Positions 19,734-38,493 of a stretch of DNA of 64,000 bases are shown here, one piece after another. Source of the DNA: an uncultured Clostridia bacterium (GTDB lineage Bacteria > Bacillota > Clostridia > TANB77 > CAG-508); NCBI GenBank assembly GCA_934133005.1, contig CAKPAI010000001.1, positions 298,769 through 362,768 on the forward strand, in the 5' to 3' direction. The translations under genes were made by a program, and so were the position numbers. The notes beneath the pieces are model-generated. The model was not told the origin of the DNA. It saw only the letters and a program-made list of their open reading frames with translations, and did not search any database. How positions within the stretch are numbered: position 1 is the first letter of the stretch; each line of letters opens with the position of its first letter.

Positions 19734-21032
19734 TTAAACCCTTATTGGAACATCAATTTTTCCTTTAGCTATACATACATTATTTTTTATTATATATGCT
19801 TCAACATAATGGTCACCATCAAATTTAGAATATTCAGTATGTGTATAACTATTTGTTTCTAAAATTTGTCCCCTAATATCGTTTTTTTGCTTAGCTAAAT
19901 CTCCTTCGTTTTTTACTTTCCAAAGAATTTTATCTATACCATAATTCATAATTTCTGCTTTATTTACTATGTAAAATTCTAATTTTTTATCCCTCTTTAG
20001 AAACACATGATTTGTTATCATATCCCTTAAACTAGCTGGGCGGAATCCATCTTGTGTTACTATACAATCCAATTTTAAATTTAATACTACATCAACAGGA
20101 TATTCATCTTCAATAAATTCTTCTGTATGATCATAAGTGTATTGTTCTTTTTCTTCTTCCTCATTTTGTGCTTTAGGAAATTCTTTTCCAAAAAGATTTC
20201 TTAATTCTTTATTTAAATTTTTAGAATCCTCATTTAAATCTTTAATTTTGTTATAAGCTTTTTTGGCTTTTTTTACGAATTTTCCTCCATCATCATTATA
20301 TATTTTTTGATTACTTCCTATTGCAAACCAATAACTCTGATCTTTATCTTCATTCTTTAAGAACTCAAAAATATCTTTAACTAGATTTAAATAATCTTCA
20401 TATCCACAATTTTGATATTCCTTCTTCTTTTCAGGGAAATTATTAGTTAAAGTATCAATTAATAAGCCTTTAAATTTAAAACCTTTTTTGTTTTTCCATG
20501 ATCTAAGCATATGACATATATTTGTAAAATTTCCATTTGTGTCATCATCTTTTTTCTTACATTCGTCTATTTCTGGAATTGGATTTGTAATCTTCCAGCT
20601 TCCTCCATCATTTGTATCTGGATATTTAAATGAATCATCATTTTGCTTAAATCCTGGAACTAATTCTACTGTGTATTTTGTAAAGTTTATTACTACAACT
20701 TGTCCATCACCTTTTAAGTCTGTATTAGGATATTTTTCTTTCAATACATTTTTTACTTCTTGTAATAATTGAGATTGTTTATTTCCATCATTATCATTTA
20801 TTCTATCATAAACACTCTTAGGTAGATTAAAAAGTATGTCCAAATCACTTGTATTTTTTATTGCTGTAGTTCTACCAACTGAACCTACAATATACATATT
20901 AGATTCGTCATCATCTATGTCATAATAATGTTTATTTAATTTTTTTGTAATGCCTTTTACTGTTGTTTGCATATCTTCAAAATTATCTAGTTTTATGTTG
21001 TTACAGAAATCACAAAAATCATCTTTAATCAT
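19734..21032 (-). CDS. Pol-beta-superfamily nucleotidyltransferase, SMODS/CD-NTase-like (432 aa)
   Basis: GSVGRTTAIKNTSDLDILF = GS-x11-DhDh nucleotidyltransferase active-site motif. ~230-aa C-terminal extension. ATG immediately abuts stop of upstream 2TM gene. Confidence 0.55.
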   Translation of the reverse strand: MIKDDFCDFCNNIKLDNFEDMQTTVKGITKKLNKHYYDIDDDESNMYIVGSVGRTTAIKNTSDLDILFNLPKSVYDRINDNDGNKQSQLLQEVKNVLKEKYPNTDLKGDGQVVVINFTKYTVELVPGFKQNDDSFKYPDTNDGGSWKITNPIPEIDECKKKDDDTNGNFTNICHMLRSWKNKKGFKFKGLLIDTLTNNFPEKKKEYQNCGYEDYLNLVKDIFEFLKNEDKDQSYWFAIGSNQKIYNDDGGKFVKKAKKAYNKIKDLNEDSKNLNKELRNLFGKEFPKAQNEEEEKEQYTYDHTEEFIEDEYPVDVVLNLKLDCIVTQDGFRPASLRDMITNHVFLKRDKKLEFYIVNKAEIMNYGIDKILWKVKNEGDLAKQKNDIRGQILETNSYTHTEYSKFDGDHYVEAYIIKNNVCIAKGKIDVPIRV

Positions 21033-21578
21033 TTATTTTCCCTTTCTAAGCTCTACAGGTAAATAGCTATCTATTTCTTCATCTGAAAATGTATTATCTT
21101 TTTGTATTTTTAAAGCTTTTGATGCTTTTTTTACAGCTCTATCACATGTAGATAAGCTTTTCTTGCATATATTATGATATTTTAATAATATCTCATCTCT
21201 CTTCTTAGTAGCTTCATCCAATTCTATCTTATTTAATTTTATATCTGATAATACACAAATGGTTTCATTTTTTAATTGTAAAAATTCTAATGCGCTTAAT
21301 TTATGACTATCTCTTGATTCTTTTAAATTATATGTTTTATAAAAAGTATTTATAAATAGACATATAGCTGAAAAAACAGTGGTAATTATCTTTAAAGCAA
21401 CTTCATCAATAAAAAAGCAAGTTAATAATCCTGATGTAGTAATTGCTGAAGATAATATCTTGCAAAATTCTAAAACATTAAACCAAAAAGAATTAATATC
21501 ACTATGTTTTTCATGAATTTTATGGTTCCATACTATTGATGCAAAAATTTGTCTTATCTCTGATTCTATTATATTCAT
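21033..21578 (-). CDS. Two-TM helix protein, SLATT-like candidate membrane effector (181 aa)
   Basis: Two adjacent hydrophobic helices (FNVLEFCKILSSAITTSGLLTCFFI ; ALKIITTVFSAICLFINTFY) followed by ~100-aa helical/coiled C-terminus. Directly upstream of the nucleotidyltransferase. Confidence 0.45.
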   Translation of the reverse strand: MNIIESEIRQIFASIVWNHKIHEKHSDINSFWFNVLEFCKILSSAITTSGLLTCFFIDEVALKIITTVFSAICLFINTFYKTYNLKESRDSHKLSALEFLQLKNETICVLSDIKLNKIELDEATKKRDEILLKYHNICKKSLSTCDRAVKKASKALKIQKDNTFSDEEIDSYLPVELRKGK

Positions 21579-21823: not shown

Positions 21824-23017
21824 ATGGCTGGGAGTATAGAAAAAAGAGGAAAAAATAGTTACAGGCTAACAGTATCTGAAGGATTTGGCCTAAACGGAAG
21901 ACCTATGATACACAGAAAAACAGTCCACGGGACTAAAAAAGATGCAGAAGTTGAACTAGCAAAATTTGTTACTGAAGTACAAAATGGTTTAGTACTTGAT
22001 GGTAAATCTCTTAAATTTTCTGAATTTACAGAAATATGGAAAAGAGATTATGGTTCAAAAGAACTTGCTCCATCAACATATAAAAGATATTGTAGAATGT
22101 TAGAAACAAGACTTTTACCATACTTTGGACATTTTTATATTAACAAAATAAAACCAACTGACATTATGAAATTCTATGACTTACTTGAAAAGGATACTCA
22201 GTTAGTTAGGAAAAAAGGTAACAATGGTTCAAAAACAAAAAAGCCCTTATCTGGTAAAACAATTTTAGAGCATCACAGATTATTACGAGCAATGCTTCAT
22301 AAAGCAGTTTATTGGCAATTAATAGTGGCGAATCCTGCTGAACGTGTTCAACCACCTAAAGCTAGAAAACCAAAAAGAAGATCTTATGATGATGAGCAAA
22401 CTAAAATATTACTAGAAAATTTAGAACTATTATCTAGCGAAGATACTAAATACAAAGTTGCAATCATCCTTACAGTATTTACTGGTGTTCGTTTAGGCGA
22501 GTTAATGGGTCTAGAATGGCAAGATGTTGATTTTAAAAACGGAATTATCAGTATTAATCGTTCTAGTCAGTACCTAGCAGATATGGGAGTTTTCACAAAA
22601 GTTCCAAAAACAGAAAGTTCCATTAGAGAAATTGCAATACCTGAATTTATTATTTCTTTACTTGAGAAATATAAGTTATGGTATGAAGAACAAAAATCGA
22701 TTTACGGCGAATTATGGACGAATTCCGATAGGTTATTTGTACAAGCAGATGGCAAACCAATGCATCCTTCTACAATTAGCAAATGGTTTGTAAAATATGT
22801 TGGTCAAATAGGATTACCTGTAATTAATTTTCACGGATTAAGACATACAAATGCAAGTTTACTAGTTGCACAAAATATTGATATAGCAGTAATTTCTGCG
22901 AGACTAGGACATGCACAAATAAGTACTACACTTGATTTTTATGTGCATCCACTACTTTCTCACAATAGAAAAGCTGGATATGCACTAGAAAATTTGTTAT
23001 TACCAACAAGGTCTTAA
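21824..23017 (+). CDS. int: Tyrosine site-specific integrase (phage integrase family, AP2-like arm-binding N-terminal domain)
   Basis: N-term KRGKNSYRLTVSEGFGLNGRPMIHRKTVHGTKKDAEVEL (arm-binding domain). C-terminal HGLRHTNASLL...LGHAQISTTLDFYVH (R..HxxR..Y catalytic box region). Confidence 0.85.
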   Translation: MAGSIEKRGKNSYRLTVSEGFGLNGRPMIHRKTVHGTKKDAEVELAKFVTEVQNGLVLDGKSLKFSEFTEIWKRDYGSKELAPSTYKRYCRMLETRLLPYFGHFYINKIKPTDIMKFYDLLEKDTQLVRKKGNNGSKTKKPLSGKTILEHHRLLRAMLHKAVYWQLIVANPAERVQPPKARKPKRRSYDDEQTKILLENLELLSSEDTKYKVAIILTVFTGVRLGELMGLEWQDVDFKNGIISINRSSQYLADMGVFTKVPKTESSIREIAIPEFIISLLEKYKLWYEEQKSIYGELWTNSDRLFVQADGKPMHPSTISKWFVKYVGQIGLPVINFHGLRHTNASLLVAQNIDIAVISARLGHAQISTTLDFYVHPLLSHNRKAGYALENLLLPTRS

Positions 23018-23259: not shown

Positions 23260-23299
23260 GGCATTTGAGGTATTTATTTTACCCAATTTTTACCCAATT
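23260..23299 (+). repeat. Arm-type direct repeat A2 (GGCATTTGAGGTATTTATTTTACCCAATTTTTACCCAATT) ~120 bp inside middle core
   Basis: Matches 1939-1979 including tandem TTTTACCCAATT x2. Confidence 0.55.
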
Positions 23300-23392: not shown

Positions 23393-23437
23393 TGGTTGCG
23401 GGGGTAAGACTCGAACTTACGACCTTCGGGTTATGAG
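23393..23437 (-). pseudogene. tRNA-Met(CAT)-like 3' fragment (anticodon loop + variable + T-arm + acceptor 3' strand + CCA); contains shared core 23421-23437
   Basis: Minus-strand read: CTCATAA-CCCGA-AGGTC-GTAAG-TTCGAGT-CTTAC-CCCCGCA-A-CCA. Perfect 5-bp T-stem, GTTCGAGTC T-loop, U33, CAT anticodon. Upstream 5' half (23438-23470) is not tRNA-like, so not an intact gene. Confidence 0.7.
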
Positions 23438-23472
23438 AAATGGAATGCATTTCTCGTTTTTTCTATTATGTT

Positions 23473-23515
23473 TTAAAGAGTGCTATTCTGTATATTTACA
23501 GCATAACACTCTTTT
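23473..23515. other. Imperfect 19-bp-arm hairpin AAAGAGTGCTATTCTGTA-tattt-TACAGCATAACACTCTTT in att-proximal non-coding region
   Basis: 11/13 + 6/6 complementary arms seen directly. T-rich on + strand after stem. Confidence 0.4.
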
Positions 23516-23548
23516 TATTATTTAATAATAATTCTATTATTTTTTAGG

Positions 23549-23576
23549 TCGGTAGGGGTATTTTTAGGGGTATACC
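23549..23576 (+). repeat. G-rich direct repeat G1 (GGTCGGTAGGGGTATTTTTAGGGGTATACC)
   Basis: Matches 38494-38519 (GGTAGGGGTATTTTACTGGGGTA). Unusually G-rich for this genome. Lies ~115 bp inside the middle core, immediately after KAP gene stop. Confidence 0.55.
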
Positions 23577-23579
23577 CTT

Positions 23580-26500
23580 TTATCCCACATTATCATTATA
23601 AAAATCTTTTTCTTCATCTATCATTTTGTTTCTAAACATTCTTGTTATTTTAAAATATTGTGCTCTTCTCATCATACTTATTTTAATTACATTACTTGTA
23701 GTAATATGATAGCAATTATATAATATTTCATTTAATTCTTTTTTATTTTCACTAAAATACATTCTTTCAAATTTTCCTAACAATTGATCTATACTTGTAA
23801 TATATTCAACATCATCAATATTTTGTAGTGCTTTTTCTATAAATTTCAAAACAGTTGCTGATTTTATATCATTTTGCTTTATAGTACACAATTCTATCAT
23901 ATTATTTAATAAAACATTATTTGAAATATTATCTAAATTATTATAATTTTGATTTATTATATCATTTAATGTATATTTTTTCATTTTTGACTCTATATTT
24001 AAACAATCTTGTATAGTTCCTTTATCACTAAGAATTCTATTTATATCATCAGTAACAGTTTCTAAATTTTTATTATCAAATGATTTTCCTATAAATTTAA
24101 ATGCTTTATCATAATTAAATCCCTCTAAATCTTTAATATTTCTATTTAGTTCATATATTTTTGATATATAACTAAAATGTTCATCTAGTGCATCAATTAC
24201 TATATTAGGACTGTTTGCTAATTTTATATTATCCACTAAAAATTGCACATATTCTGTCAAATTATCATTTTCACCGCAAAAGAATTTTCTATTATTCCTT
24301 AATATACTAAAACTATCTTCATATGTACTCGTATTTAGGTGTTCATTTAACTTTGGTATTAACAGTTTCATTATATTATCTGGTATTTCATCTTTTAAAA
24401 GCTTGAACGGTAAAATTGCTCTTTCTGGATAGTTATTATAAGCTGATATAACTGTTTTTAAGTATTCTTCCAACTTATCATCACTTATATATTCTTTTGC
24501 ATAAATAACCACCTCATATGTATAATTAAAATATGTCTTATATGATGGATATGATTTATATTTTTTTATTATCGTATCTTCTATAAATTTAGTAATATAT
24601 GATGCGTTTTCTTTTATACATAAGTATTTAAATATTTGTTTTTCTCTTGAATATTCCTTAGATGTATTAAATGCAGACAATTCTGTTAATTTTTCAAATA
24701 TAGTATCTAATATATTTTCATCCAGATATATTACTATATCTTTAAATATTTCATCATATTTTTCGTTTTTGAATATAGTTTCAGTTATATTAGTTAAGGT
24801 CTCTTCTATATATTGTATATTATCTTTGTCTTTAATCAAAATGTTTTTTATAAGTTCTTGAGCTTTCTCTTGCTCTAAGTTATCATTTAAATATTGATCT
24901 ATGTCTTCGCTATTTTCGTCGTTTATTTCGAAATTTATTTTATTTAATATATCTAAAGCATTTACTTTATCTTGACTCTTAGATGTTGCTATTATGTTAG
25001 CTATTTCTGTACCTTTATTTACATCTATATTGTTGCATAATTCCTTTGTAAATAGTCTATTTAGCCTTTCAAGTAATTTAGTATATTTAAATAGTACTAT
25101 TATGTCATCTATGGAATCTAATACTTTATCAACTTTGTCTAGTTCTTTGAAATACTCTTCATATTTAGATAGAATCTTCTCTGAAAAGTCGTTACTTGTA
25201 TCCATATATTTACATAGTGTATTAAATAGTTGATTCCCAAAATATTCTACAAAAATGGTCTGTTCTTTAATATTTACTTTTTCAATAAATATATTAATTT
25301 TTTCTGTATTATTTTCTATTACTTTACAAATAAACTCTTTAAAATTGCCCTTTATATTACTTTCTAAGTTATCTTTTTCTTCTAAATATTTATTTATAAT
25401 TTCTATGTTTTTATCCAAATCTGTATTTTCTTTTGCACAATCTATATATTTATCTAAAAGTTTATTTATGTATTCTTTTTTATTTGCTAATTTTAATATA
25501 GAAAACACATTGTTTATATTTAGTTCTAAAATATTTATTTCTTCTTTAGTATAATCTAAATTATATATTTTTTCTGATAAGTTTTCAGCAATAATAGTCT
25601 TATTCTCTTCTTTTATAACATCAAAAGAATTTATTATTGTTATTATTCCATTTAATAAATCTGTATCTTCTGCATTATCTAGCTCATACATAATTGAATC
25701 AATCATATTGTCATTTTCTTCAATCATTTTTCTGACTGTTTTTGTATTTTTGCTCTCCATAGCTGAAACAATACGTCTATTATTTTCATCACCTGTTTTT
25801 ATACTTATTTCATCTTGTATTAAATACATAAATGGTGCTATATTATTGACTTGATATTTTTCAGTTTGCTTCAAAAAATTTATTAACGGTTCATATTCTG
25901 ATTTTATTTCAGCCTTAATATTTTCTTCATTACCTTTCTGTTCAAAAAATATTTGTAAATCTTCATCTATTTCGTTTATTTTTTTGCTTGTTTCATGTAA
26001 GTCAACAATTCTTTTTATATAATTGAAGTTTCTAAATAACACATCATAAAAATCATTAAAATCAGCTTGTAAAACTGATATCTTTGCTAATTGCAAATCA
26101 GATTCTTCACTATCTAATAAATTTTTTTCAATTTTTCCATTTTTGCTTCTATTGGTCATTAATATTTTATTGTTAACAAATGTATTTATAAGTTTTTTTA
26201 CTTGTCTAGGTGTAGTTACATTTTTGTGTATTAATACCTTTCTAATTACACTTTCCAGTCTATTCATTGTGCAATACTCTTCTATAAAATCCGGTATATT
26301 CTCTTGTACTAAATTTACTGCATATTCTTTTATATCAAAATCTAATAATGGTGGTATATATATTTTATATTGAAACAACTTGTCTAATATTAGCTCACTT
26401 TCTACCATTTGATGATTACCATCTAATTTTATTGTTCTGTTTTGGTCTAATGCCTTTTTTAAAATTGAATCATCAAAAGGAACTATAAAAATACAATTCT

Positions 26501-27308
26501 CAAATCCCACAAACGCTTTTATTGCATCTAATGCTTCTACTATTTTGTCAATGCTTAACCTATCTAAATCATCTATTACTGTTACAATTTTTTTCTTTTT
26601 GTTCTGTCCTATTTTTTTATTTATTGTATCTTCTAAAAATGTTTCATAATCATCTGTTGTTTCTATTGGTATTTTAACTTCAATTTTTTTATCGTATCTT
26701 TTTATAAACTCTGATAGAGTAACTGTAACAAATGATAATATTAAAGGAAATATCAATACTTTTCCAATATTTTTGCAATATCCAAGAAACCATTCTCTCC
26801 AAAATCCATCACCAAATCCATTAAGTTGTACAGCTTTATATATTATAAATGCTACAATACTTACTAATGATATTCCAAAACTTATTTTACAAAATGTTTT
26901 CATCATATTTTTAAATCTTGAATCATCTTCTGTTTCATCTTGATTTATAATATCTCTATATATTTTTTTAATTGTTTCAAAAGTTTTGACTTTTTCACCA
27001 CTAATTCCTTGCCATAATTGTTTTAGAAACACATTTTTTAATGATTCTTTTTCGTATTTCCAAGCATTTATCTCTTGGACAATATAATTGTCAGAGTCTT
27101 TTCTATATTTATCTAATAGTAAATTTACTATTGAAGATTTTCCTATCCCCCATTTTCCAATTAAAGCTATATTATATGGCGGATTTGTATTTTCAATAAT
27201 TAACCTTAAATTATCTACTACGTCTTTTTGATTGAATCTATCGTCATCTATACTTATTAATTCACTATCTTTTAAAAAATATTTTTTCTCTTTTTTCTTT
27301 TTATCCAT
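23580..27308 (-). CDS. KAP-family P-loop NTPase, 1242 aa, with ~850-aa low-complexity C-terminal extension
   Basis: Walker A NIALIGKWGIGKSS. Two TM helices inserted after Walker A (ISFGISLVSIVAFIIYKAV ; VLIFPLILSFVTVTLSEFI). Walker B VTVIDDLDR. Insertion of TM helices into the NTPase core is the KAP hallmark. Confidence 0.75.
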   Translation of the reverse strand: MDKKKKEKKYFLKDSELISIDDDRFNQKDVVDNLRLIIENTNPPYNIALIGKWGIGKSSIVNLLLDKYRKDSDNYIVQEINAWKYEKESLKNVFLKQLWQGISGEKVKTFETIKKIYRDIINQDETEDDSRFKNMMKTFCKISFGISLVSIVAFIIYKAVQLNGFGDGFWREWFLGYCKNIGKVLIFPLILSFVTVTLSEFIKRYDKKIEVKIPIETTDDYETFLEDTINKKIGQNKKKKIVTVIDDLDRLSIDKIVEALDAIKAFVGFENCIFIVPFDDSILKKALDQNRTIKLDGNHQMVESELILDKLFQYKIYIPPLLDFDIKEYAVNLVQENIPDFIEEYCTMNRLESVIRKVLIHKNVTTPRQVKKLINTFVNNKILMTNRSKNGKIEKNLLDSEESDLQLAKISVLQADFNDFYDVLFRNFNYIKRIVDLHETSKKINEIDEDLQIFFEQKGNEENIKAEIKSEYEPLINFLKQTEKYQVNNIAPFMYLIQDEISIKTGDENNRRIVSAMESKNTKTVRKMIEENDNMIDSIMYELDNAEDTDLLNGIITIINSFDVIKEENKTIIAENLSEKIYNLDYTKEEINILELNINNVFSILKLANKKEYINKLLDKYIDCAKENTDLDKNIEIINKYLEEKDNLESNIKGNFKEFICKVIENNTEKINIFIEKVNIKEQTIFVEYFGNQLFNTLCKYMDTSNDFSEKILSKYEEYFKELDKVDKVLDSIDDIIVLFKYTKLLERLNRLFTKELCNNIDVNKGTEIANIIATSKSQDKVNALDILNKINFEINDENSEDIDQYLNDNLEQEKAQELIKNILIKDKDNIQYIEETLTNITETIFKNEKYDEIFKDIVIYLDENILDTIFEKLTELSAFNTSKEYSREKQIFKYLCIKENASYITKFIEDTIIKKYKSYPSYKTYFNYTYEVVIYAKEYISDDKLEEYLKTVISAYNNYPERAILPFKLLKDEIPDNIMKLLIPKLNEHLNTSTYEDSFSILRNNRKFFCGENDNLTEYVQFLVDNIKLANSPNIVIDALDEHFSYISKIYELNRNIKDLEGFNYDKAFKFIGKSFDNKNLETVTDDINRILSDKGTIQDCLNIESKMKKYTLNDIINQNYNNLDNISNNVLLNNMIELCTIKQNDIKSATVLKFIEKALQNIDDVEYITSIDQLLGKFERMYFSENKKELNEILYNCYHITTSNVIKISMMRRAQYFKITRMFRNKMIDEEKDFYNDNVG

Positions 27309-27454
27309 TATTACACATTCCCTTCAATAGTTTTATATTTTCATTTTTTGTCTTTTGTGTAATATTCTCATTTTTATATTAGCAATTCTATCATATTTTT
27401 CCAATTTTGTATATATTTTCCACAAATTTGCCAGACGTCTGGCAAATTCAATTT

Positions 27455-28774
27455 TCATTTTTTAATTTTTCTATTTTTACCAACTTTTTTTCTATTATCA
27501 AATACTTCTATCCTTTGTAACATATCATTTACCTTAATTTTGCCTTCAGCACATTCTTGTTTTAATTCTAATGCCATATAATTCCATTGATTAAACTCAC
27601 TTTTTGAAATTATTTTCCTATCAGCTTTATATTTATACCTTTTATATACTCTCCAATATTCTTTTTCTCCTGGTATATCTCCTGCTTTTTCTTTATGTCT
27701 ATTCATTGCTCCAACATCTTTGCAAGTTTTTTCTGTTCCTTTTATTGGTCGATTACAATATATTTCATCTTTTCTATTTACTGGTATAAAATATTGATGA
27801 CAATTTTCGCATTCTTTAAACTCTATATCACTGCTTACAAATTTTAATAATTCAAATCGAATTAAATCGTTCATATCCTTAATTTCATATAATTCCTTTA
27901 TTTCTGTGCTATCTCTTTTAACCACATCAATCAAATCTTTACTTGTTTTATATTCAGCTGTTTCATCTAAATTAGGAACTGCCCTATAAAATACATTAAA
28001 TGGTTTGTTTATATAAAAATTATCTTGTTTATTTTCAATAACTCTTGTTTGATCTAGAACATATAGTTTTTGTGCATTTGACATTCCTTCTAATTGACTA
28101 TTGGTTATTTTTTTATAAATATAATCTATCTCTTCTTTTAAAATGGCTCTCTTTCTCTTTATATCTGCTATAATTTCTTTTCTTACATAATGATAAAATT
28201 TTATATATCTTTCCTTTTTCTTTTCGTCAATTACTGATGCCAATTTTCTAATTCCTATATATCTATCTGTTTTTAATTTTTTATCTTTATTTGCATTTTC
28301 ATGTTCTACATAAATACAATTTTTTACAGTAGTATCTGGCATTCTCTTTTCTAATATATCCATTCTTTCTACTCCACTTGTTGGAGTTTCAGACATAATT
28401 TCATATAGCATTTGTGTATAAAAGTGCATATATACACAACTATTATCTATTTGTGCCATTAAATCTTGTAACATTTCTATGTAATCAAACATTGATATTT
28501 TAGTATTCGAAGCTTTTTGAGTTATTAAATCAATAACTTGTGTATATGCCATATTTATTTCATCAATATCTAAATACATAAAATTTAATAAATGTATTCC
28601 TAATGGAAATTCCATTCTCTGTACTCCTAAAAAATCTTCATTATCTGGATAAATACATATATGATTATTTTCGTTCAAAGTCGCATATAAAGCCATTTTA
28701 TCACCCCTATATTTTTGGAATATCGATATTTTGCATTTTTTAGAAAATCGATTTCTACGATACATATTATACAA
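27455..28774 (-). CDS. Hypothetical protein with C-terminal Zn-finger-like domain, paralog of 17734-18783 (likely start at MALYATL ~28696)
   Basis: C-terminal ECENCHQYFIPVNRKDEIYCNRPIKGTEKTCKDVGAM. Divergent from HTH gene at 28959. Confidence 0.55.
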   Translation of the reverse strand: MYNMYRRNRFSKKCKISIFQKYRGDKMALYATLNENNHICIYPDNEDFLGVQRMEFPLGIHLLNFMYLDIDEINMAYTQVIDLITQKASNTKISMFDYIEMLQDLMAQIDNSCVYMHFYTQMLYEIMSETPTSGVERMDILEKRMPDTTVKNCIYVEHENANKDKKLKTDRYIGIRKLASVIDEKKKERYIKFYHYVRKEIIADIKRKRAILKEEIDYIYKKITNSQLEGMSNAQKLYVLDQTRVIENKQDNFYINKPFNVFYRAVPNLDETAEYKTSKDLIDVVKRDSTEIKELYEIKDMNDLIRFELLKFVSSDIEFKECENCHQYFIPVNRKDEIYCNRPIKGTEKTCKDVGAMNRHKEKAGDIPGEKEYWRVYKRYKYKADRKIISKSEFNQWNYMALELKQECAEGKIKVNDMLQRIEVFDNRKKVGKNRKIKK

Positions 28775-28958
28775 AACTATTGTAATTTTTTCAATATCGT
28801 TTTATTATTTCCATCAGAAGCAGATAAAAATTTTATCTTCGCTTATGTACATTGAAAACTAAATAGTCCAGATATACACAAATAAAGAAACTTCTACCTG
28901 GCTAACGTGATGTAAAGGGGTAGCTCTCCTAGATGGAGGGAATGGAAACAGAACCATT

Positions 28959-29234
28959 ATGGTATTAAATACATATATAGGGACGTTAAACAAGAAAAAA
29001 AAATTTTTGAGGAAAGGAGAACAAATACCTATGAGAAGTACATTTAAAACAAACGAAGAATTACCTGCAACATTGTCAGCAACAGATATTAGTAAATACT
29101 TAGGAATTTCGAAAGCTAATTCATATCAATTAATGAATCGTTCAGATTTTCCTACACTTAAACTTGGTAAACGAAAATTAGTACCAAAAGATAAATTTTT
29201 AATATGGGTAAATAACAATACAAATGTTATTTAG
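28959..29234 (+). CDS. Excisionase-family HTH DNA-binding protein (probable true start ~29031, MRSTFK...)
   Basis: LSATDISKYLGISKANSYQLMNRSDFPTLKLGKRKLVPKDKFLIWV, typical excisionase/HTH_17-like. RBS gaggaaaggagaacaaatacctATG before internal Met. Confidence 0.65.
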   Translation: MVLNTYIGTLNKKKKFLRKGEQIPMRSTFKTNEELPATLSATDISKYLGISKANSYQLMNRSDFPTLKLGKRKLVPKDKFLIWVNNNTNVI

Positions 29235-29246
29235 AAGGAGTAACTT

Positions 29247-31172
29247 ATGGAAGAAAATATGAATAAAAAAAATAATATTCAGGTAAATGCTTTAAATGTT
29301 GGCACAGAGAAAGCATCTTCTAAATATTATTCTTATCAAAATGATTCTACTGATATTATACAAGCAAATACAAATAAATTCAATAAAAATCAAGAAAATT
29401 CTTTAAGTTCTCTATTTGAAAATACACCTTATGAAATAATTGATGGTTCTTTATTTAAGGTTACAAATAAAAAAGGAAATAAAGTTTATCAAAAATTATC
29501 AAACTTTGTTCCTTATTTAAAAAATGAAACAATTATTGATGATGGTGTAGATGTAAAAAGATATTTGAGCATGGAAGGTAAACATGCTAATGGCAAAAAT
29601 CTGCCTTCCATTAGAATATCTGCAAATGATTTTAACAATATGAATTGGATAACAAAAAATTGGGGCTTACATTGTAATATTGAAACAGGACAAACTGTAA
29701 AAGATTGTATTAGACATGCTATTCAATGTACTGCAACTAATATAAAAATTGAACATATCTATTGTCATACTGGTTGGAGAAATATTAATAACAAATTAGT
29801 ATTTCTATGTAATAGTTTATATTTAGATAAAAATATTGAAACAAATGTTGAACTAGAAGGAAAATTATCACGTTATTGCTTAACAGATGTTACAGAAAGA
29901 AATATCGATGAAGATTTAAAATGTATAAGGAAATTACTAGATACTGAATTTATACCACATAAAATCATATTACCTTTAATTGCTTTAGCATTTCTATCTC
30001 CATTAAATCATTTTCTAGAAATAGCTGATTGTGAACCAAAATTAGTATTATTTTTAATTGGAAAAACTGGAGCTAAGAAAAGCACTCTTGCTTCTCTTAT
30101 ATTATCATTCTTTGGAGATTTTACTAATACTGATTTACCTATATCTTTTAGAGATACTGCTAATAGTATTATTGCACAATCATTTATCTTAAAAGATGTT
30201 TTAACTGTAATTGATGACTACCACCCTTCTACTAAATTAGATGAATTATCTATGAATAAAACAGCACAAGTCATTATGAGATCTTATGGCGATAGAATAG
30301 GAAAAAATAGATTAAATTGTGATAGTACATTAAAAGTATCCAAACCACCTAGAGGAAATGCCATCATTACTGGAGAATCAACACCAGATATTTCCGAAAG
30401 CGGTACTGCTAGATATATCAGTATTGAATTACAGCCAAACGACATTGATGTTTCGAAATTAACCAAATTACAAGAATTATCAAGAAATGGATCTTTTAAA
30501 TCTGTTATGAGTTTTTATATTAGATGGATTTATCAATATGTGAATGGTGTTTATACAGAAAAAGAATATGCAAATAAATTAAGAGAAGATTTTATAAATA
30601 ATAGAAAAATCCTAATTACAGAATTAACTAATAGAAATATAACTTTTCATCCTAGAATACCCGAAGCATTATCTTGGCTCTTTATAGGTTTTGAGAAATT
30701 TTTAAACCTTATGAATAATGCAAATGTTCTTACAAATGATGATTTACAATTTTTAGTTTCCGAATTTGCAGATATTTTAATAAATCTAGCAATATCTCAA
30801 TCTAAAACTGTTACTGAAGATAATCCTAGTATGAAGTTTGTTACTAAATTAAATTCATTGTTAGAAAGCAAAATTGCAAGAGTTCAAGATATAAGAACTT
30901 ATCAATATGCAGGTGGAAATGGCTTTATTGGTTATGAAGATGATATGTACTATTATTTAATATCAAGCATATCTCATAAATTAGTAAAAAAACTTTGTGA
31001 TGAACAAGGAGAATTGTTCTCAGTAAGTGAGAGAACTCTATTAAAACACTTAGATGAAGATGGATTTATAGAAACTTCAAAAGATAGTAGAACAAAATTA
31101 CTACGAGTTGGTGGTAGTCCACAAAGATTTATATGGTTAAAAAAAGATAAATTTAGGAGTATTATACAGTAA
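29247..31172 (+). CDS. Primase/helicase-type replication protein (SF3/D5-like NTPase; DUF927 / P4-primase-C-like)
   Basis: Walker A LFLIGKTGAKKSTLASL. Walker B LTVIDDYHPS. 641 aa. Located between xis-like gene and mob genes as in SaPI/IME-type elements. Confidence 0.55.
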   Translation: MEENMNKKNNIQVNALNVGTEKASSKYYSYQNDSTDIIQANTNKFNKNQENSLSSLFENTPYEIIDGSLFKVTNKKGNKVYQKLSNFVPYLKNETIIDDGVDVKRYLSMEGKHANGKNLPSIRISANDFNNMNWITKNWGLHCNIETGQTVKDCIRHAIQCTATNIKIEHIYCHTGWRNINNKLVFLCNSLYLDKNIETNVELEGKLSRYCLTDVTERNIDEDLKCIRKLLDTEFIPHKIILPLIALAFLSPLNHFLEIADCEPKLVLFLIGKTGAKKSTLASLILSFFGDFTNTDLPISFRDTANSIIAQSFILKDVLTVIDDYHPSTKLDELSMNKTAQVIMRSYGDRIGKNRLNCDSTLKVSKPPRGNAIITGESTPDISESGTARYISIELQPNDIDVSKLTKLQELSRNGSFKSVMSFYIRWIYQYVNGVYTEKEYANKLREDFINNRKILITELTNRNITFHPRIPEALSWLFIGFEKFLNLMNNANVLTNDDLQFLVSEFADILINLAISQSKTVTEDNPSMKFVTKLNSLLESKIARVQDIRTYQYAGGNGFIGYEDDMYYYLISSISHKLVKKLCDEQGELFSVSERTLLKHLDEDGFIETSKDSRTKLLRVGGSPQRFIWLKKDKFRSIIQ

Positions 31173-31174
31173 TA

Positions 31175-31370
31175 TTTTCTGTTACAACTGTTACATTTTT
31201 CTAAATTGCATATGGTTGTAAGAAAATATTAGTAACAATTATCTAAAATTATCTGATACAAAAATGAAACAGAATTTGTTACAACTTGTATCAGATATGT
31301 AACAAATAACGAAAGTTTATAATCAACTTATATAACTATATTCTACAGTGTTGTAACAGATGTAACAGTA
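31175..31370. promoter_or_regulatory. Candidate oriT: six copies of TGTTACA/TGTAACA in direct and inverted arrangement upstream of mobC
   Basis: tgttacaactgttaca (~31179), ttgttacaacttgtatcagatatgtaacaa (~31275, inverted pair), tgttgtaacagatgtaacag (~31348). Confidence 0.45.
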
Positions 31371-31444
31371 TTTTTATATATAATACTTCACTTCTTGCTA
31401 AATTTAAGCTATTCTTTGTAGTTTTTTATAGGCAAGATTCCTAA

Positions 31445-31921
31445 TTGTATAGACATACAATTAAATGGTTGCGTTATTGCTTTAGCAATTACGAACCATT
31501 ATATGTGGCTTTGCCACTAGATTTTACACCCAAAATTCACTTTGGGTGTTTTAATTTTGGGAGAACCCAAACCCCTTTTACAAATTTTAGAGAAAGGAAC
31601 TTAATATATATGAGAAAAAATAATAAACAAATTAATTTTAGAGTTAGTGAAAAAGATTATAACTATATAAAAAGGCAATCTGAAAAAGCTAATATAACTT
31701 TAACTGACTATTTAAAATATTCAGCACTTAACAAGAACATATATGTAATTGATGGATTAGATGATGCTTCAAGAGAACTTGCTAAAATTGGAAATAACTT
31801 AAATCAGCTAACTAGACTATGTCATCAAGGTGTTATTACTTGTTTAGATTTAAGTGAGATTAGAGAGCAGGTGAAACATATATGGCAGTTATTAAATTTA
31901 CTAACTCCAAATCAACTTTAA
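31445..31921 (+). CDS. mobC: MobC-family relaxosome accessory protein (probable true start ~31610, MRKNNKQINFRVSEKD...)
   Basis: FRVSEKDYNYIKRQSEKANITLTDYLKYSAL ... LAKIGNNLNQLTRLCH matches conserved MobC (ribbon-helix-helix start and IGNNLNQ box). RBS agaaaggaac. Confidence 0.7.
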   Translation: MYRHTIKWLRYCFSNYEPLYVALPLDFTPKIHFGCFNFGRTQTPFTNFRERNLIYMRKNNKQINFRVSEKDYNYIKRQSEKANITLTDYLKYSALNKNIYVIDGLDDASRELAKIGNNLNQLTRLCHQGVITCLDLSEIREQVKHIWQLLNLLTPNQL

Positions 31922-33132
31922 AACATATTATAAATTACATAACACAAGATGCTAAAACTACTACTGAATTAATTACAGGAAAAGATTGTACTTCTGACAA
32001 TGCCTTAGAGGAAATGCAAACTGTAAAAAATTTATATAACAAGACAACTGGCAGACAATATATTCATTTAGTACAATCTTTTTCCCCTAACGATAATTTA
32101 AGTTATGACAAAGCACATGAAATTGGATTAGAACTTGCAAAACAATATAAAGGTTTTCAAGTATTAGTAGCAACTCATACTGACAGAGAACATGTACATA
32201 ATCATCTCGTAATAAATTCTGTATCTTTTGAAGATGGTAAGAAATTTCAACAAAGTAAAAAAGATATGGAAAAAATAAAAATACATTCTAATGAATTATG
32301 TGCAAAAAATGGACTTTCCACTATTTCATTAAAAGGAAATTCAAAGGTTAGTAATAGTTTAACACTAAAAGAATATCATGTAGCAAATAAAGGTCAAAGT
32401 TGGAAAATGCAACTAATAAATGCCATTGACTATTCAATAGAAAATTCATTAACTAAAAAAGATTTCATATCAAATATGAATAGTTTAGGGTATCAAGTTA
32501 ATTGGACTGATACAAGAAAAAGTATAACTTACACTACTCCAACTGGAATGAAGTGTAGAGATAATAAATTATATGATATTAAATATTTAAAGGAGACTAT
32601 GCAAAATGAGTTTAATAGAAAATTTAAAAGAGAAAAATCAAATACCACAGCAAACACAAATGAAAGCAGAGTTTTACACAGTTCAACCAGAAACGTGGAT
32701 AACTCTTTTCAAGTGGATAGAAGATACGAAGGACAAAATCAAAAATATGGAATACAAAATGGACAAGCAAATTTCAATGGCAGACATTCTAAATACACTA
32801 AAAAAGGAACTTACAGAAACAATAAGAATACATCTGGAAGTTCAGATGATGAAATATCAAGAGGAATTGAAAGAACTACAAAAGATAAAATGGAAAAATA
32901 TATTCAAATGGATACCAATAGGTATTGTAATAGGTATTTTAGTAACCGTTCTCTGGATACATTAGTATCCCTTGCCTATTTATTTGAAAATAGACAATAT
33001 AATCAAAATAAACCTAAAAGAACAATAAGAAGTTTTAGGAGTTTAAGCAAACAAGCTAAAAAAGAATGGATTATGAAGCATAAATATTCAAGTAGTTTTG
33101 ATTGGTTTGAAGAAGATGAATGGGAAATGTAA
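31882..33132 (+). CDS. Relaxase/mobilization nuclease (MobA/VirD2-like domain, HxH motif)
   Basis: LKHIINYITQD N-terminal region. HTDREHVHNHLVINSV three-His metal-binding motif of relaxases. Overlaps mobC 3' end. Confidence 0.7.
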   Translation: MAVIKFTNSKSTLKHIINYITQDAKTTTELITGKDCTSDNALEEMQTVKNLYNKTTGRQYIHLVQSFSPNDNLSYDKAHEIGLELAKQYKGFQVLVATHTDREHVHNHLVINSVSFEDGKKFQQSKKDMEKIKIHSNELCAKNGLSTISLKGNSKVSNSLTLKEYHVANKGQSWKMQLINAIDYSIENSLTKKDFISNMNSLGYQVNWTDTRKSITYTTPTGMKCRDNKLYDIKYLKETMQNEFNRKFKREKSNTTANTNESRVLHSSTRNVDNSFQVDRRYEGQNQKYGIQNGQANFNGRHSKYTKKGTYRNNKNTSGSSDDEISRGIERTTKDKMEKYIQMDTNRYCNRYFSNRSLDTLVSLAYLFENRQYNQNKPKRTIRSFRSLSKQAKKEWIMKHKYSSSFDWFEEDEWEM

Positions 33133-33150
33133 AAAATATTTTTAACAATA

Positions 33151-33372
33151 TTGACTTTTGACTGTCATAATGTTATTATATTTATGGCAGTCAAAAAGGA
33201 GGTGGATATGACTGAGAAAAAGCTAGGTCGTCCAACTGATAATCCTAAGAATACTAAATTAACTGTTCGTGTAGATGCGGAAACATTAGAAATATTAGAA
33301 AAATATTGTAAGAAAGAAAATATATCTAAAATGGAAGGTATTCGTAGAGGAATTAGAAAATTGGACAAATAA
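33151..33372 (+). CDS. Small ribbon-helix-helix/CopG-like DNA-binding protein (start likely ~33208, MTEKKLGRPT...)
   Basis: KKLGRPTDNPKNTKLTVRVDAETLEILEKYCKKENISKMEGIRRGIRKL. RBS aaaaaggaggtggatATG. Confidence 0.5.
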   Translation: MTFDCHNVIIFMAVKKEVDMTEKKLGRPTDNPKNTKLTVRVDAETLEILEKYCKKENISKMEGIRRGIRKLDK

Positions 33373-33383
33373 AAAAGGAAATA

Positions 33384-33806
33384 GTGTTTCTGACAGTCAA
33401 TCTTATTACACTATTCCCTAGCAATACTACTTCGAAAGTAGAATTACATGAATATTATATCACATGCAATCTTCTACTTTCAACAAAAATGAAAATTTTA
33501 ATGAAAGAAGGAGGATTTTTTATGCCTATCAATCAAAATTTATTTGAAGAAGAACTTGATGAGTTCTTTAATAATCTAATCAATTCATATCTAAACTATT
33601 TATCACAAGAAGATGAAATTTATAAGAAGCTTGGTAAAAATAAAAATTCTTGTATTGAAAATTTTCTAAAGGACTTTCCTAATACTAATGATTCTTTAGA
33701 AAAACTTATCAATTATATTTATTTAGAAAATGAATATGAATCTGATGTCTTATATAGACAAGGTTTTATTGATTGCTTTAACTTTCTAAAACTTCTTGAT
33801 TACTAA
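33384..33806 (+). CDS. Hypothetical acidic protein (probable start ~33522, MPINQ..., 95 aa)
   Basis: RBS gaaggaggattttttATG. No motif recognised. Immediately precedes integrase. Confidence 0.45.
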   Translation: MFLTVNLITLFPSNTTSKVELHEYYITCNLLLSTKMKILMKEGGFFMPINQNLFEEELDEFFNNLINSYLNYLSQEDEIYKKLGKNKNSCIENFLKDFPNTNDSLEKLINYIYLENEYESDVLYRQGFIDCFNFLKLLDY

Positions 33807-35109
33807 ATCAAGGAGGTTCAATATGTCAAAAAGAGGTCAAAATGAAGGCAGTATTAGACAAAGAAAAGATGGTACTTGGGAAGCTAGATATACTGTAGGT
33901 GTAAAAGAAAATGGAAAACCTAACAGAAAATCTGTATATGCTAAAACTAGAAAAGAAGTTAAAGATAAATTAAATGCCATTTTGTTATCTCTAAAGAATG
34001 GAACTTATACTAATTCAAATAATATATTATTCATAGATTGGCTTAGCAAATGGCTTGAAACTTATGCTAAGCCTAATATAAAACTTGCTACATATACAAG
34101 TTATGAAACATATATACGAGGTCATTTGAAACCTTATTTTTCTAATATAAAATTACAATCTGTTTCAGCAGAAATGCTACAAAAATTCTTTAATTATAAA
34201 CAGAACAATGGTAGATTAGATAATCGTGAAGGTGGCTTATCAGCTAAAACTTTGAAAAATATGTATAATATGCTACATGCTTCATTTAAACAAGCATATA
34301 TTAATGGATTAGTTCAAACAAATATCGTTGAAACTATAAGAACTCCTAAAATTTTCAGAAAAGAAATGAGAGTTTTAACTAGAGAAGAACAAAATAAATT
34401 AATTCATGTTGCTAGAAATTATAGATTAGGAATTGTTGTTATATTAGATTTATTTACAGGTATGAGATTGGGTGAAATCCTTGCTTTGAGATGGTGTGAT
34501 GTTGATTTAAAAGGTCAAAATTTAATTGTTAGAAATAGTATTAAGAGATTATCTACCCATGAGAAAGCATCTAAAAATCAGAATAAAACTAAATTAATTT
34601 TAGATACTCCAAAATCTCAAACAAGTTATAGAGAAATACCGCTTCTCTCTCCTATTGTTAAAGAATTAAAAACTCACAAGCAAAAGCAAAAAATTGAAAT
34701 CCAATTAGCTGGTAAATCCTATATAAATAAAGATTTTCTATTTTGTAATCAAATTGGAGAACCTTATGATCAGAAAACTTTTTGGAAAGAGTATTCTTTA
34801 ATGTTAATAGATGCCGGTTTACGAGATAAAAAAGAAAAACCAATTAGAAATAAAATTAAAAAGAATATAAAATCTAAACCCAAATCTCATGCTGATAAAG
34901 TTCAAGTTACATTCCATACTTTAAGACATACTTTTGCAACTAGAGCAATTGAGCAAGGTATGGAAATTCCTGTACTTAGTAAAATTCTAGGACATGCTGA
35001 TATAAGTACCACTTTGAATAAATATTGCCATGCTATTCCAGATAGGAAGCGTGAAAATATGGAGAAAATTGAGTGTTTATATGATGATAGCCTAGATGGT
35101 GGAATCTAG
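33796..35109 (+). CDS. int: Tyrosine site-specific integrase 2 (probable ATG start 33823, MSKRGQNEGSIRQRKDGTWEARY...)
   Basis: AP2-like arm-binding N-terminus. C-terminal HTLRHTFATRAIEQG...LGHADISTTLNKYCH. Strong RBS caaggaggttcaatATG. Lys-rich insertions relative to integrase 1. Confidence 0.85.
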   Translation: MITKSRRFNMSKRGQNEGSIRQRKDGTWEARYTVGVKENGKPNRKSVYAKTRKEVKDKLNAILLSLKNGTYTNSNNILFIDWLSKWLETYAKPNIKLATYTSYETYIRGHLKPYFSNIKLQSVSAEMLQKFFNYKQNNGRLDNREGGLSAKTLKNMYNMLHASFKQAYINGLVQTNIVETIRTPKIFRKEMRVLTREEQNKLIHVARNYRLGIVVILDLFTGMRLGEILALRWCDVDLKGQNLIVRNSIKRLSTHEKASKNQNKTKLILDTPKSQTSYREIPLLSPIVKELKTHKQKQKIEIQLAGKSYINKDFLFCNQIGEPYDQKTFWKEYSLMLIDAGLRDKKEKPIRNKIKKNIKSKPKSHADKVQVTFHTLRHTFATRAIEQGMEIPVLSKILGHADISTTLNKYCHAIPDRKRENMEKIECLYDDSLDGGI

Positions 35110-35135
35110 GCTATTTTGTGTAAAATACTATAATA

Positions 35136-35561
35136 TTAAATTTCATCTGGAGTAAAAACTTCAATTCCATTTTCTATTAAAAGGTCTGCCAATATACCAT
35201 TTCCATCTATTAATTTATTATCAAAATTTCCACTATAAATTTTATTAACTCCACAAGACGGGCTTCTTGGCTGAAGTATCGCTTTATTGATATTTAAGCT
35301 TTTAGCTAATTTTAATACTTCTATTGCTCCTCTTTCAAAATTTTCTGTAACATCATTTCCTTCATTATCAATTGCATATCTTTTTCCATCAATAACTTTA
35401 AGTTCCACAGGTTTTCTTGGTGTCTTTAACCCTCCTAGTTGTTCTGGACAAATTGGTATAGCTTTTCCTTCCTTTACTAAATCAAAAATCTTTTTATTAA
35501 AATTATTGCCTCCACTATATTTGCAATTTATTCCTACTAAACAAGCACTTACAAGTATCAT
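35136..35561 (-). CDS. DUF523 (YbbK-like) family protein
   Basis: MILVSACLVGINCKYSGG...PICPEQLGGLKTPRKP...PRSPSCGV conserved Cys pattern of DUF523. Confidence 0.6.
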   Translation of the reverse strand: MILVSACLVGINCKYSGGNNFNKKIFDLVKEGKAIPICPEQLGGLKTPRKPVELKVIDGKRYAIDNEGNDVTENFERGAIEVLKLAKSLNINKAILQPRSPSCGVNKIYSGNFDNKLIDGNGILADLLIENGIEVFTPDEI

Positions 35562-35953
35562 TACATTAGACCTCTTTCTACTAAATTTGGTATAACATGT
35601 TCTCCTAAAATACTACCTACTTTTATTCCATTTTTCTTATAATCTTTATCAATCCATATTGCTTCTTTAATTTCATTTTTGCATTTTATTTTTCCTTTTA
35701 TTTCAGCTAAATATGTTTGGACATGAATAGGCTCATCTGAAAAACAAGCAATATCATCATATCCACCTATAAATTCAGCATTTACTAATTCTACATTTAG
35801 CTCTTCATCTAGTTCTCTTTTTAATGTTTCAAAATCTGTTTCATTTCCTTCACGTTTTCCTCCTGGAATTATACATTCTTCCCTATTATTCTTTTTTCTT
35901 TGAACAAGGACTTTTTTATCTTTTAAAATTACTCCACCAACTTTATCTATCAT
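35561..35953 (-). CDS. Nudix hydrolase (MutT-like)
   Basis: Nudix box GGKREGNETDFETLKRELDEELNV. Confidence 0.8.
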   Translation of the reverse strand: MIDKVGGVILKDKKVLVQRKKNNREECIIPGGKREGNETDFETLKRELDEELNVELVNAEFIGGYDDIACFSDEPIHVQTYLAEIKGKIKCKNEIKEAIWIDKDYKKNGIKVGSILGEHVIPNLVERGLM

Positions 35954-36017
35954 ATTTTTATTACCTTTCTATCATTTTATACTTTTAAATCAGAACATTC
36001 TTTCTTCTTATTTCTTT

Positions 36018-36824: not shown

Positions 36825-36842
36825 ATTTTTTTTACCTTTTTC

Positions 36843-37295
36843 TTAATCTTTTAAAATATCAACAATATCAATAGGTGCAACTAAATTATTATTTTGGTTA
36901 ATTACTGCTGTTCTAACATAATTTCCTCTTAACATACTTTCCATTTGATTAACTATTTCATCATAATCAAACCATTTAACATCTAAAATTTCTTCTTTAT
37001 CAAACTCAATATTTTCATTAATAAGTTTAGCATTAAAAACAATCATTACAAATAAATCGTCTTCTAAAATTCTATTAGCAACATAGCAAACTCCGTCTAG
37101 TTTAACATCACAACCTGTTTCTTCTTTTATTTCTCTAATTGCTCCTTGCTCTAAACTCTCGTTAAAATCTAAATGTCCTGCTGGAAAATTCCATTTTTCA
37201 TAACATTTTTTCTTCGCTTCTTGTACTAACAAATATTTTCCTTCTTTTTCTATAATTCCACCTACTATTACTTTCATAATTTTGCTTTCCTCCAA
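36843..37295 (-). CDS. Nudix hydrolase
   Basis: Nudix box GHLDFNESLEQGAIREIKEETGCD. Confidence 0.8.
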   Translation of the reverse strand: MEESKIMKVIVGGIIEKEGKYLLVQEAKKKCYEKWNFPAGHLDFNESLEQGAIREIKEETGCDVKLDGVCYVANRILEDDLFVMIVFNAKLINENIEFDKEEILDVKWFDYDEIVNQMESMLRGNYVRTAVINQNNNLVAPIDIVDILKD

Positions 37296-37306
37296 TTATA
37301 TTTCTT

Positions 37307-37837: not shown

Positions 37838-37884
37838 TTAACTCCTCCTTAATATTATTATTTTTTAAATAATAATTTTAAACA

Positions 37885-38406: not shown

Positions 38407-38493
38407 AAGCTCTCCTCTTTCCTTATTGCTATTACTATATCACAAATTCCTTAATTATTCCATAGTTTACCATTAATTCTATTACTTTTCATC

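Follow-up and report, generated by a model that had tools for sequence, protein, structure and literature searches.

KAP proteins are P-loop NTPases defined by a match to the KAP_NTPase profile (PF07693), a Walker A motif of the type GxxxxGK[ST] and a Walker B motif of the type hhhhDDxDR; in the account given by Aravind et al. in 2004 they reportedly carry two (or four) transmembrane (TM) helices inserted in the NTPase domain. The closest described system is Tmn, a standalone protein of ~ 1270 amino acids that assembles into a decamer; its P-loop domain contains two TM helices, and its arms are ARM/HEAT solenoids (PMC13001434, preprint). Tmn binds T2 RIIB; its ATP turnover rises, Mg2+ is exported and the cells undergo plasmolysis. 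Through ATP depletion it also activates Gabija and Septu (PMC13001434). A second reference point is EF_KAP, which protects E. faecalis, as do three KAP proteins from the gut whose C-terminal regions are unrelated; the activity needs both Walker B (D246/D247) and the C-terminal region (PMC13552941). Tmn and EF_KAP each function as a single gene in heterologous hosts (PMC13001434, PMC13552941). The view of KAP NTPases as functionally uncharacterised, held in the initial annotation of the locus described here, has been overtaken by this 2026 evidence. The locus lies in a stretch of 64,000 nucleotides (the window) of contig CAKPAI010000001.1 from an uncultured Clostridia bacterium and contains a gene for a 1242-residue KAP protein. 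By analogy with the above systems we hold, with moderate confidence, that the product of this gene is a self-contained immune protein anchored in the membrane, and that the gene is carried as interchangeable defence cargo by an integrative mobilizable element (IME) of ~ 11.7 kb, here called element 2. If so, the single-gene design of a membrane NTPase joined to a solenoid, as in Tmn of Enterobacteria, extends to abundant human-gut Clostridia. The coordinates of all features are collected in Table 1.

The KAP open reading frame (ORF) spans 3.7 kb at ~ 25% GC, in a window where GC varies between ~ 22 and 36%, and its length is far beyond chance expectation. A ribosome-binding-like motif, GAAGGGA, is located ~ 10 nucleotides 5' of the ATG, and a database search found the identical 1242-residue protein on 73 contigs, mainly from human-gut metagenomes. 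The ORF is real. The Pfam KAP_NTPase profile aligns with residues 32–378 (profile positions 6–287 of 293) with an E value of 1.8e-34 and 119.8 bits, compared with a cutoff of 20, and all four relatives checked likewise match this family. Walker A reads GKWGIGKS (residues 51–58) and Walker B reads VIDDLDR (residues 244–250); G51, K52, W53, G54, G56, K57, S58, I245, D246, D247, L248, D249 and R250 are invariant in 53 sequences. The core β-strands in the AlphaFold2 (AF2) model comprise residues 45–51, 75–81, 240–246, 272–279 and 314–317. Kyte–Doolittle values of 1.6 or more, calculated over 19-residue windows, occur only at residues ~ 141–160 and ~ 182–200, with peaks of 2.11 and 2.19, respectively, and AF2 places this predicted TM hairpin in two long helices (residues 130–161 and 169–208) inserted into the P-loop α/β core. 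Hairpin and loop residues F154, Y157, K158, Q161, F169, Y177, C178, N180, L185 and P188 are kept in at least 90% of the distant family members; because some ten positions are conserved to this extent, the hairpin is probably more than a passive anchor. By profile, Walker motifs and predicted TM insertion the protein is a KAP NTPase, as the initial annotation had read from the letters.

The region that follows the NTPase domain accounts for the unusual length of the protein. A predicted helical linker joins the NTPase to a putative solenoid of ~ 720 residues. The linker is 46% identical to distant relatives, and its invariant residues include R387, Q414, D416, Y421, Q498, G506 and D507. The initial annotation had called the whole extension, there put at ~ 850 residues, rich in Asn, Lys, Glu and Ile; the richness is present, yet the same bias is common to the N-terminal part and does not set the extension apart. 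The alternative of pure low complexity is refuted: the sequence entropy of the extension is 3.84 bits compared with 3.99 bits in the N-terminal part, no 40-residue window of the extension falls below 3.0 bits, and AF2 with the alignment of relatives folds residues 380–1242 with a mean predicted local distance difference test (pLDDT) score of 86.9 into an all-α structure except for one small β-hairpin at residues 455–468 of the linker. The AF2 model of residues 1–1200 (pLDDT 80.3) contains the P-loop α/β core, the two very long inserted helices and 41 more helices, whose median length is 11 residues. Fold matches to the solenoid were solely to repeats of the karyopherin, CAND1 and PP2A-A type, and neither the Pfam scan nor the fold matches revealed any enzymatic effector domain such as a nuclease or a protease. 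As modelled, the protein is built from a cytoplasmic P-loop NTPase of the KAP/YobI type, into whose core a membrane hairpin of two helices is inserted, followed by the linker and a HEAT/ARM-like solenoid.

When set beside the published description of Tmn, the protein agrees in length and in the two TM helices within the P-loop domain. The Walker B motifs are of the same D..R type (D276/R279 in Tmn, D247/R250 here), and both proteins have an all-α C-terminal region with an ARM/HEAT-like solenoid whose C-terminal part is variable. Neither is tied to a conserved operon, both are carried by mobile elements, and part of the Tmn homologs occur in Bacillota. The differences are that the proximal arm of Tmn comprises a coiled coil and an α/β domain, only partially mirrored by the β-hairpin at 455–468, that the protein described here scores as Pfam KAP_NTPase and not as YobI-ATPase, and that its host is a gut Clostridia bacterium. 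Among the 120 best relatives, fourteen have a weak match to YobI-ATPase in precomputed annotation (PF20693; P0064, 35.7 bits compared with a cutoff of 27), and for this reason the family lies at the border between KAP and YobI. Judged by its published description, EF_KAP shares the KAP P-loop domain with TM helices followed by an uncharacterised C-terminal region, the identical D246/D247 numbering of Walker B, and the occurrence of single-gene systems in Firmicutes and in the human gut. The EF_KAP C-terminal region is 322 residues long, compared with ~ 860 residues here. The homolog P0121 (69% identity) adjoins a 120-residue resolvase, the marker used in that study (PMC13552941), whereas the gene in the window is linked to tyrosine integrases and not to a small serine recombinase.

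The remaining likenesses are more distant. The best PADLOC match is to PifA, the F-plasmid protein for T7 exclusion, with 62.6 bits and an E value of 6.6e-18, aligning residues 223–376 with PifA positions 167–312 of 720. Both are KAP-family NTPases on mobile elements; PifA lacks TM helices and a long solenoid, and identity with PifA was ruled out by the partial match and the TM hairpin. QatA of QatABCD is likewise a KAP-type ATPase in anti-phage defence and gives partial profile matches, but the protein described here is about twice as long. Identity with QatA was ruled out, as the NCBIfam model NF041923 scores 50.7 bits compared with a cutoff of 600 and no QatB, QatC or QatD is found among the neighbours. 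The analogy with Avs/STAND proteins is functional: an NTPase joined to a large helical-repeat sensor for a phage protein. These belong to another NTPase clade, and the protein described here has no N-terminal effector domain and is predicted to be membrane-inserted.

The gene was placed in element 2 by comparison with other copies of the element. A metagenome scan with the DUF6076 protein of the backbone yielded 35 loci, in many of which (L057–L069) the backbone from the integrase gene int2 to DUF6076 is 96–100% identical at the protein level. Four same-backbone copies carry the KAP gene and eight hold unrelated cargo instead. Backbone DNA is 98% identical from position ~ 35116 to 27385–27413, breaks off, resumes at 23572–23581, just past the KAP stop codon, and ends at ~ 23393; because homology stops and resumes at these points, the cargo slot brackets the KAP gene. 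The variable cargo consists of the KAP gene and ~ 80 bp upstream, which defines a slot at 23581–27385. On the int2 side homology ends at 35114–35124, and at least four different flanks follow the terminal hairpin. Taken together, the DNA breakpoints and the junction alignments among copies delimit an element of ~ 11.7 kb at window positions ~ 23393–35116. In the search for an empty site, the exact int2-flanking protein always occurred together with the element. That the KAP gene is interchangeable cargo of an IME, with ends defined by the copies, is strongly supported by these comparisons, and the initial annotation, which had picked it as the only obvious cargo gene beside the G-rich repeat next to the attachment (att) site, is borne out by the breakpoints and by the other defence-type cargos in the slot.

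Element 2 belongs to a row of such elements, arranged in tandem at an att site derived from tRNA-Met. In every copy a tRNA 3' half forms the end, and the terminator that comes after it differs; the T-stem changes in L057 are compensatory, which argues that the 3' halves are genuine ends of host tRNAs. Scans for tRNAs and Rfam families detected no intact tRNA in the window or in 12 loci. The G-rich repeat starts 8 nucleotides past the KAP stop codon, is kept in every element-2 copy, and is likely an integrase arm-type site. The opposite edge of the slot carries a promoter-like site and a perfect palindrome. The promoter-like site lies in sequence conserved up to the breakpoint in KAP-less copies, and against shuffled sequence such sites show no excess in this AT-rich region; the palindrome, a candidate terminator or operator, is also kept in KAP-less copies, where ORF translations begin ...LPDVWQICGKYIQ. 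The location of both features at the breakpoint suggests that the element may provide an expression signal for any inserted cargo. A 41-residue ORF called across the palindrome and the promoter-like site in other assemblies is probably spurious.

In place of the KAP gene, KAP-less copies hold a Peptidase_C14 caspase module (PADLOC 'caspase' model), a 901-residue protein combining Mrr_cat with a STAND NTPase (nSTAND1; L064), or a GmrSD_N protein that matches NsnA and PD-T4-2_A. In L058 and L063 the slot is occupied by a YhcG PD-(D/E)XK nuclease (PADLOC PDC-S02), an NA37 nucleoid-associated-like protein and two ~ 310-residue proteins, and in L062 by four genes for proteins of 183, 273, 315 and 423 residues, of which only the two largest were scanned and gave no Pfam or PADLOC match. 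Because these copies hold defence-type modules, the slot appears to be a hotspot for defence-type cargo. The element offers a clean natural system, with one conserved backbone, one sharply bounded slot and at least five different cargos. The unmatched proteins of L062, L058 and L063 are candidates for undescribed defence systems, and the two cargo sets without recognisable domains may represent new ones.

Relatives elsewhere occur in varied surroundings. P0121 adjoins, besides the resolvase, a DpnII restriction–modification (R-M) system and a TIR protein, P0040 (75% identity) adjoins DpnII/Mrr, PIN-TPR-GreABC and AAA_21 with RloB, and the closer homolog in L020 (88%) follows a Type I R-M system. 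P0059 (36%) is the first cargo gene of a Tn7-like TnsABC-TniQ transposon and is followed by a TIR protein; P0096 (Cohnella, 33%) lies between an HD/HATPase protein and an AAA_15/21 ATPase, and P0099 (37%) lies at the edge of an integrative and conjugative element (ICE). The possibility that homologs would be restricted to non-mobile contexts is contradicted by these loci. In a descriptive bulk scan, with no formal enrichment test, 80 neighbouring ORFs from 11 species included Type I and II R-M genes, integrases, superfamily 1 (SF1) helicases, PDC-S53 and PDC-S68 candidates and prophage genes. The neighbourhoods of the relatives support a defence-island setting, as far as gene content indicates. 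No partner gene is conserved across the six or more contexts compared, and DNA homology between L020 and the window covers the KAP coding sequence alone (27311–23581), resuming only at the att core. By these comparisons the KAP gene is evidently standalone and moves as a single gene.

Several observations accompany these loci. L020 is the nearest species-representative genome, a Clostridia metagenome-assembled genome (MAG), in which RhuM/Fic, Type I R-M, DUF5677 and DUF7695 lie upstream of the gene, not the IME backbone. Two proteins of the bulk scan match PADLOC PDC-S53 at E = 0. In L026, L028, L029 and L047 (Lachnospiraceae, Eubacterium, Roseburia), homologs of ~ 30% identity are directly preceded by ORFs of 922, 471 and 477–485 residues and followed by one of 787–911 residues; the 922-residue ORF, the only one of these individually annotated, is a Type I R-M HsdR (ResIII and EcoEI_R_C). 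The arrangement may reflect either an island conserved as such or a functional link confined to that subclade.

The database search returned 479 relatives, dozens of which are ~ 1240–1260 residues long and align with 99–100% query coverage at 31–40% identity, so that the unusual length flagged in the initial annotation belongs to a conserved architecture as a whole. The long relatives include proteins of Cohnella, Enterococcus and Clostridia MAGs, and the family was seen in Bacillota only. Among 46 distant members, identity to the query is 56–62% in the NTPase core, 46% in the linker and ~ 20% with ~ 1% gaps over residues 521–1200. An exhaustive phmmer search with the solenoid alone against 1.84 billion representatives returned 49 proteins, and every full-length match has the solenoid at ~ 520–1250 of a protein of ~ 1250 residues; because all share this position, the solenoid is specific to the NTPase-solenoid architecture. 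Loss of internal blocks is common in repeat proteins. The shorter relatives P0055 and P0061 were considered as C-terminal domain swaps, which was ruled out since both ends are kept and a middle block of the solenoid is deleted.

The alleles of the gene are mosaic in comparisons of the window gene with L068, L020, L017 and L006. The block encoding the TM hairpin (codons ~ 117–228) occurs in two divergent types of 61–74% nucleotide identity within genes that are otherwise 82–100% identical, and no other block of the gene differs as much between close alleles. Relative to L068, identity is 61–74% over this block and 98–100% from codon ~ 797 onward; relative to L020, codons 617–1067 are 93–98% identical and the last ~ 120 codons ~ 70%. 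Because identity is mosaic along the gene, allele blocks have been exchanged by recombination, and the exchanged hairpin and C-terminal blocks provide ready chimeras for mapping specificity versus output. The ratio of nonsynonymous to synonymous substitution rates (dN/dS), calculated against three alleles with dS partly saturated, is 0.05–0.19 in the NTPase, 0.20–0.30 in the solenoid and 0.28–0.66 in the TM hairpin. By this measure the gene is under purifying selection throughout, and no positive selection on the solenoid was found.

The analogy with Tmn and EF_KAP suggests that the solenoid would serve as the protein-binding sensor of a phage-encoded trigger. Once the trigger is bound, an oligomer anchored in the membrane through its hairpins would be activated to turn over NTP, and the output would be coupled to the membrane, for example ion export with plasmolysis and/or ATP drain, leading to arrest of the infection. 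Neighbouring systems that sense ATP could also be primed. Expression would probably start from the promoter-like site of the element backbone at the slot edge. Most likely, the proteins form a small, Bacillota-restricted family of a known class, the single-gene membrane KAP/YobI NTPase-solenoid defence proteins, and are not fundamentally new. More tentatively, the ~ 1250-residue family may constitute a Bacillota lineage of its own among membrane NTPase-solenoid immune sensors, either a very remote relative of Tmn or a product of convergence with it, in which recombination within the gene shuffles the head, hairpin and solenoid blocks and so creates new specificities; such a lineage might differ from Tmn in trigger class or membrane output. 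Current annotations probably miss the family, because PADLOC-DB 2.0.0 does not call it as a defence system.

A number of results weigh against reading the protein as a Tmn-like immune sensor. On every architectural criterion examined the protein, as modelled, works like Tmn; at the level of sequence no relationship was found. The 1242-residue protein has no PF20693 match at E ≤ 1, and neither it nor three relatives match Tmn in PADLOC-DB 2.0.0 at E ≤ 10, the presence of a Tmn model in that release being deduced from the use of PADLOC in PMC13001434; tblastn against plasmids and phages likewise gave no Tmn-like match. Even at E ≤ 10, PADLOC 2.0 gives only partial PifA and QatA matches. EF_KAP was reported not to be abortive and has a different C-terminal region (PMC13552941), and for these reasons KAP proteins may not share one mechanism. 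The charges that flank the hairpin give no clear positive-inside signal, and dN/dS exceeds 1 in no region among the three alleles. Housekeeping genes are also found by the bulk scan among the neighbours of distant homologs, and in L020 (9947–13729) the gene is split into ORFs of 114 and 1108 residues, by either a frameshift or an assembly error. The defence role itself is argued from position and analogy.

Three other roles were considered. The protein could serve mainly in conflict between elements, excluding plasmids, ICEs and IMEs that compete for the att site or for helper conjugation machinery, with phage exclusion as a side effect, as argued for PifA. PifA is the best match among defence profiles, phage restriction is probably not its primary function (PMC13552941), the gene resides on a mobilizable element within a tandem array of competing elements, and tblastn found no homolog in phage genomes. 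We nevertheless consider this role unlikely: the PifA match covers only part of the NTPase domain and PifA lacks TM helices, the other cargos of the slot (caspase-like, PDC-S02, GmrSD/NsnA and Mrr-STAND) are of defence or restriction type, and the KAP and Tmn proteins that have been tested act on phages.

A role as a sensor or regulatory scaffold that depends on partners appears quite unlikely. An Aravind-type proposal of 2004 is said to hold that the KAP NTPase governs assembly and disassembly of a partner complex, which here would take place on the solenoid; alternatively the protein might drain ATP to trigger neighbours, such as the cyclic oligonucleotide-based anti-phage signalling system (CBASS) operon located 2 kb away in the window, and not itself be the effector. 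The missing enzymatic domain, the use of solenoids as typical protein–protein scaffolds and the activation of Gabija and Septu by Tmn fit such a role. However, the coding sequence moves alone and without a conserved partner, the CBASS genes belong to a separate, independently swapped element, and Tmn and EF_KAP need no partner gene in heterologous hosts. Very improbable is a non-defence function in the life cycle of the element, as a membrane NTPase that aids mobilisation or DNA transfer or as a maintenance or addiction factor. Element 2 encodes a relaxase and MobC and, by Pfam, no coupling protein of its own, and the KAP gene is co-directional with DUF6076 and only 146 nucleotides downstream of it; yet the eight same-backbone copies do without the gene, homologs reside in the Tn7-like transposon and in chromosomal islands without any relaxase, and DUF6076 and HTH_17 occur in the adjacent element 1 without a KAP gene. 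A self-contained immune protein carried as defence cargo is the reading that we retain.

Table 1 Features of the KAP gene, element 2 and the adjoining regions. Positions refer to the window unless a locus is named.
Feature	Position	Strand	Remarks
KAP-type NTPase-solenoid gene	23580–27308	-	1242 aa, ATG start, uninterrupted ORF; element 2 cargo
KAP P-loop NTPase domain	26175–27215	-	residues 32–378; Walker A 27135–27158, Walker B 26559–26579
TM hairpin (predicted)	26709–26888	-	residues ~ 141–200, between Walker A and Walker B; 21-residue aromatic-rich loop
Helical linker with small β-hairpin	25749–26168	-	residues 381–520; joins NTPase to solenoid
HEAT/ARM-like α-solenoid, putative sensor	23583–25748	-	residues 521–1242, ~ 720 residues
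tRNA-Met(CAT) 3' half, 45 nt	23393–23437	-	att end of element 2; unique in window
13-nt att core CTCATAACCCGAA	23425–23437		inside tRNA-Met 3' half
G-rich att-proximal repeat GGTAGGGGTATTTTTAGGGGTA	23551–23572	.	candidate integrase arm-type site; distal slot edge
Promoter-like site TATACA-17-TAGAAT, TG-extended	27385–27413	-	consensus scan; backbone edge of slot
Perfect 24-nt palindrome AATTTGCCAGACGTCTGGCAAATT	27425–27448	.	just past DUF6076 stop; conserved backbone
Element 2 backbone	27455–35116	.	Pfam and comparison with copies; terminal hairpin 35087–35114
DUF6076	27455–28774	-	element 2 backbone gene
HTH_17	28959–29234	+	element 2 backbone gene
641-aa Walker A protein	29247–31172	+	element 2 backbone gene
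NikA/MobC	31445–31921	+	element 2 backbone gene
MobA/VirD2 relaxase	31882–33132	+	element 2 backbone gene
140-aa ORF	33384–33806	+	element 2 backbone gene
Tyrosine integrase int2	33796–35109	+	element 2 backbone gene
Alternative cargos	L062: 9370–13252; L058: 10375–13305		same slot as KAP gene
SF1 helicase, 926 aa	2486–5266		element 1
HTH-Fic	5311–6246		element 1
Mrr_cat	8905–9924		element 1
Eco57I+ResIII protein, 1313 aa	10071–14012		element 1
CBASS pair: SMODS+AGS_C cyclase; SLATT_4 effector	19734–21032; 21033–21578		element 1
Third att-like site	38496–38610	.	G-rich 14-mer copy 38496–38509 and 13-nt core 38598–38610

Two backbone proteins of element 2 merit description. The 641-residue protein has the Walker A motif GKTGAKKST and no Pfam or NCBIfam match; judged by its position between HTH_17 and the MobC/relaxase genes, it is probably the replication or primase-helicase protein of the element. 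DUF6076, which has a Cys-rich C-terminus, is present in both element types, and a literature search found no papers on it. It was considered as a partner of the KAP protein and ruled out, since its gene belongs to the backbone and both element 1 and the KAP-less copies have it.

Element 1 (1825–23437) is likewise integrative but of another type; it is arranged in tandem with element 2 and ends at int1 (21824–23017). It is bounded by the same 13-nucleotide core, at 1825–1837 and 23425–23437, and has its own arm repeat, TTTTACCCAATTTTTACCCAATT, at 1957–1979 and 23277–23299. In element 1, too, the cargo varies from copy to copy (L002, L020).

Beyond int2, the region 35136–38406 encodes a 2-thiouracil desulfurase, four NUDIX hydrolases and a metallo-β-lactamase-fold protein that matches the Anti-Pycsar Apyc1 Pfam family. 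This cluster was rejected as part of element 2, as it is not in the conserved unit and is missing beside int2 in seven copies, in which sequence reaches ~ 1.6 kb beyond int2. For the region up to the third att-like site (35136–38610) three origins are conceivable: host DNA, the remnant of an element, or a second variable region belonging to element 2. Enzymes that degrade nucleotides, encoded on a mobile element or next to one, might act in counter-defence.

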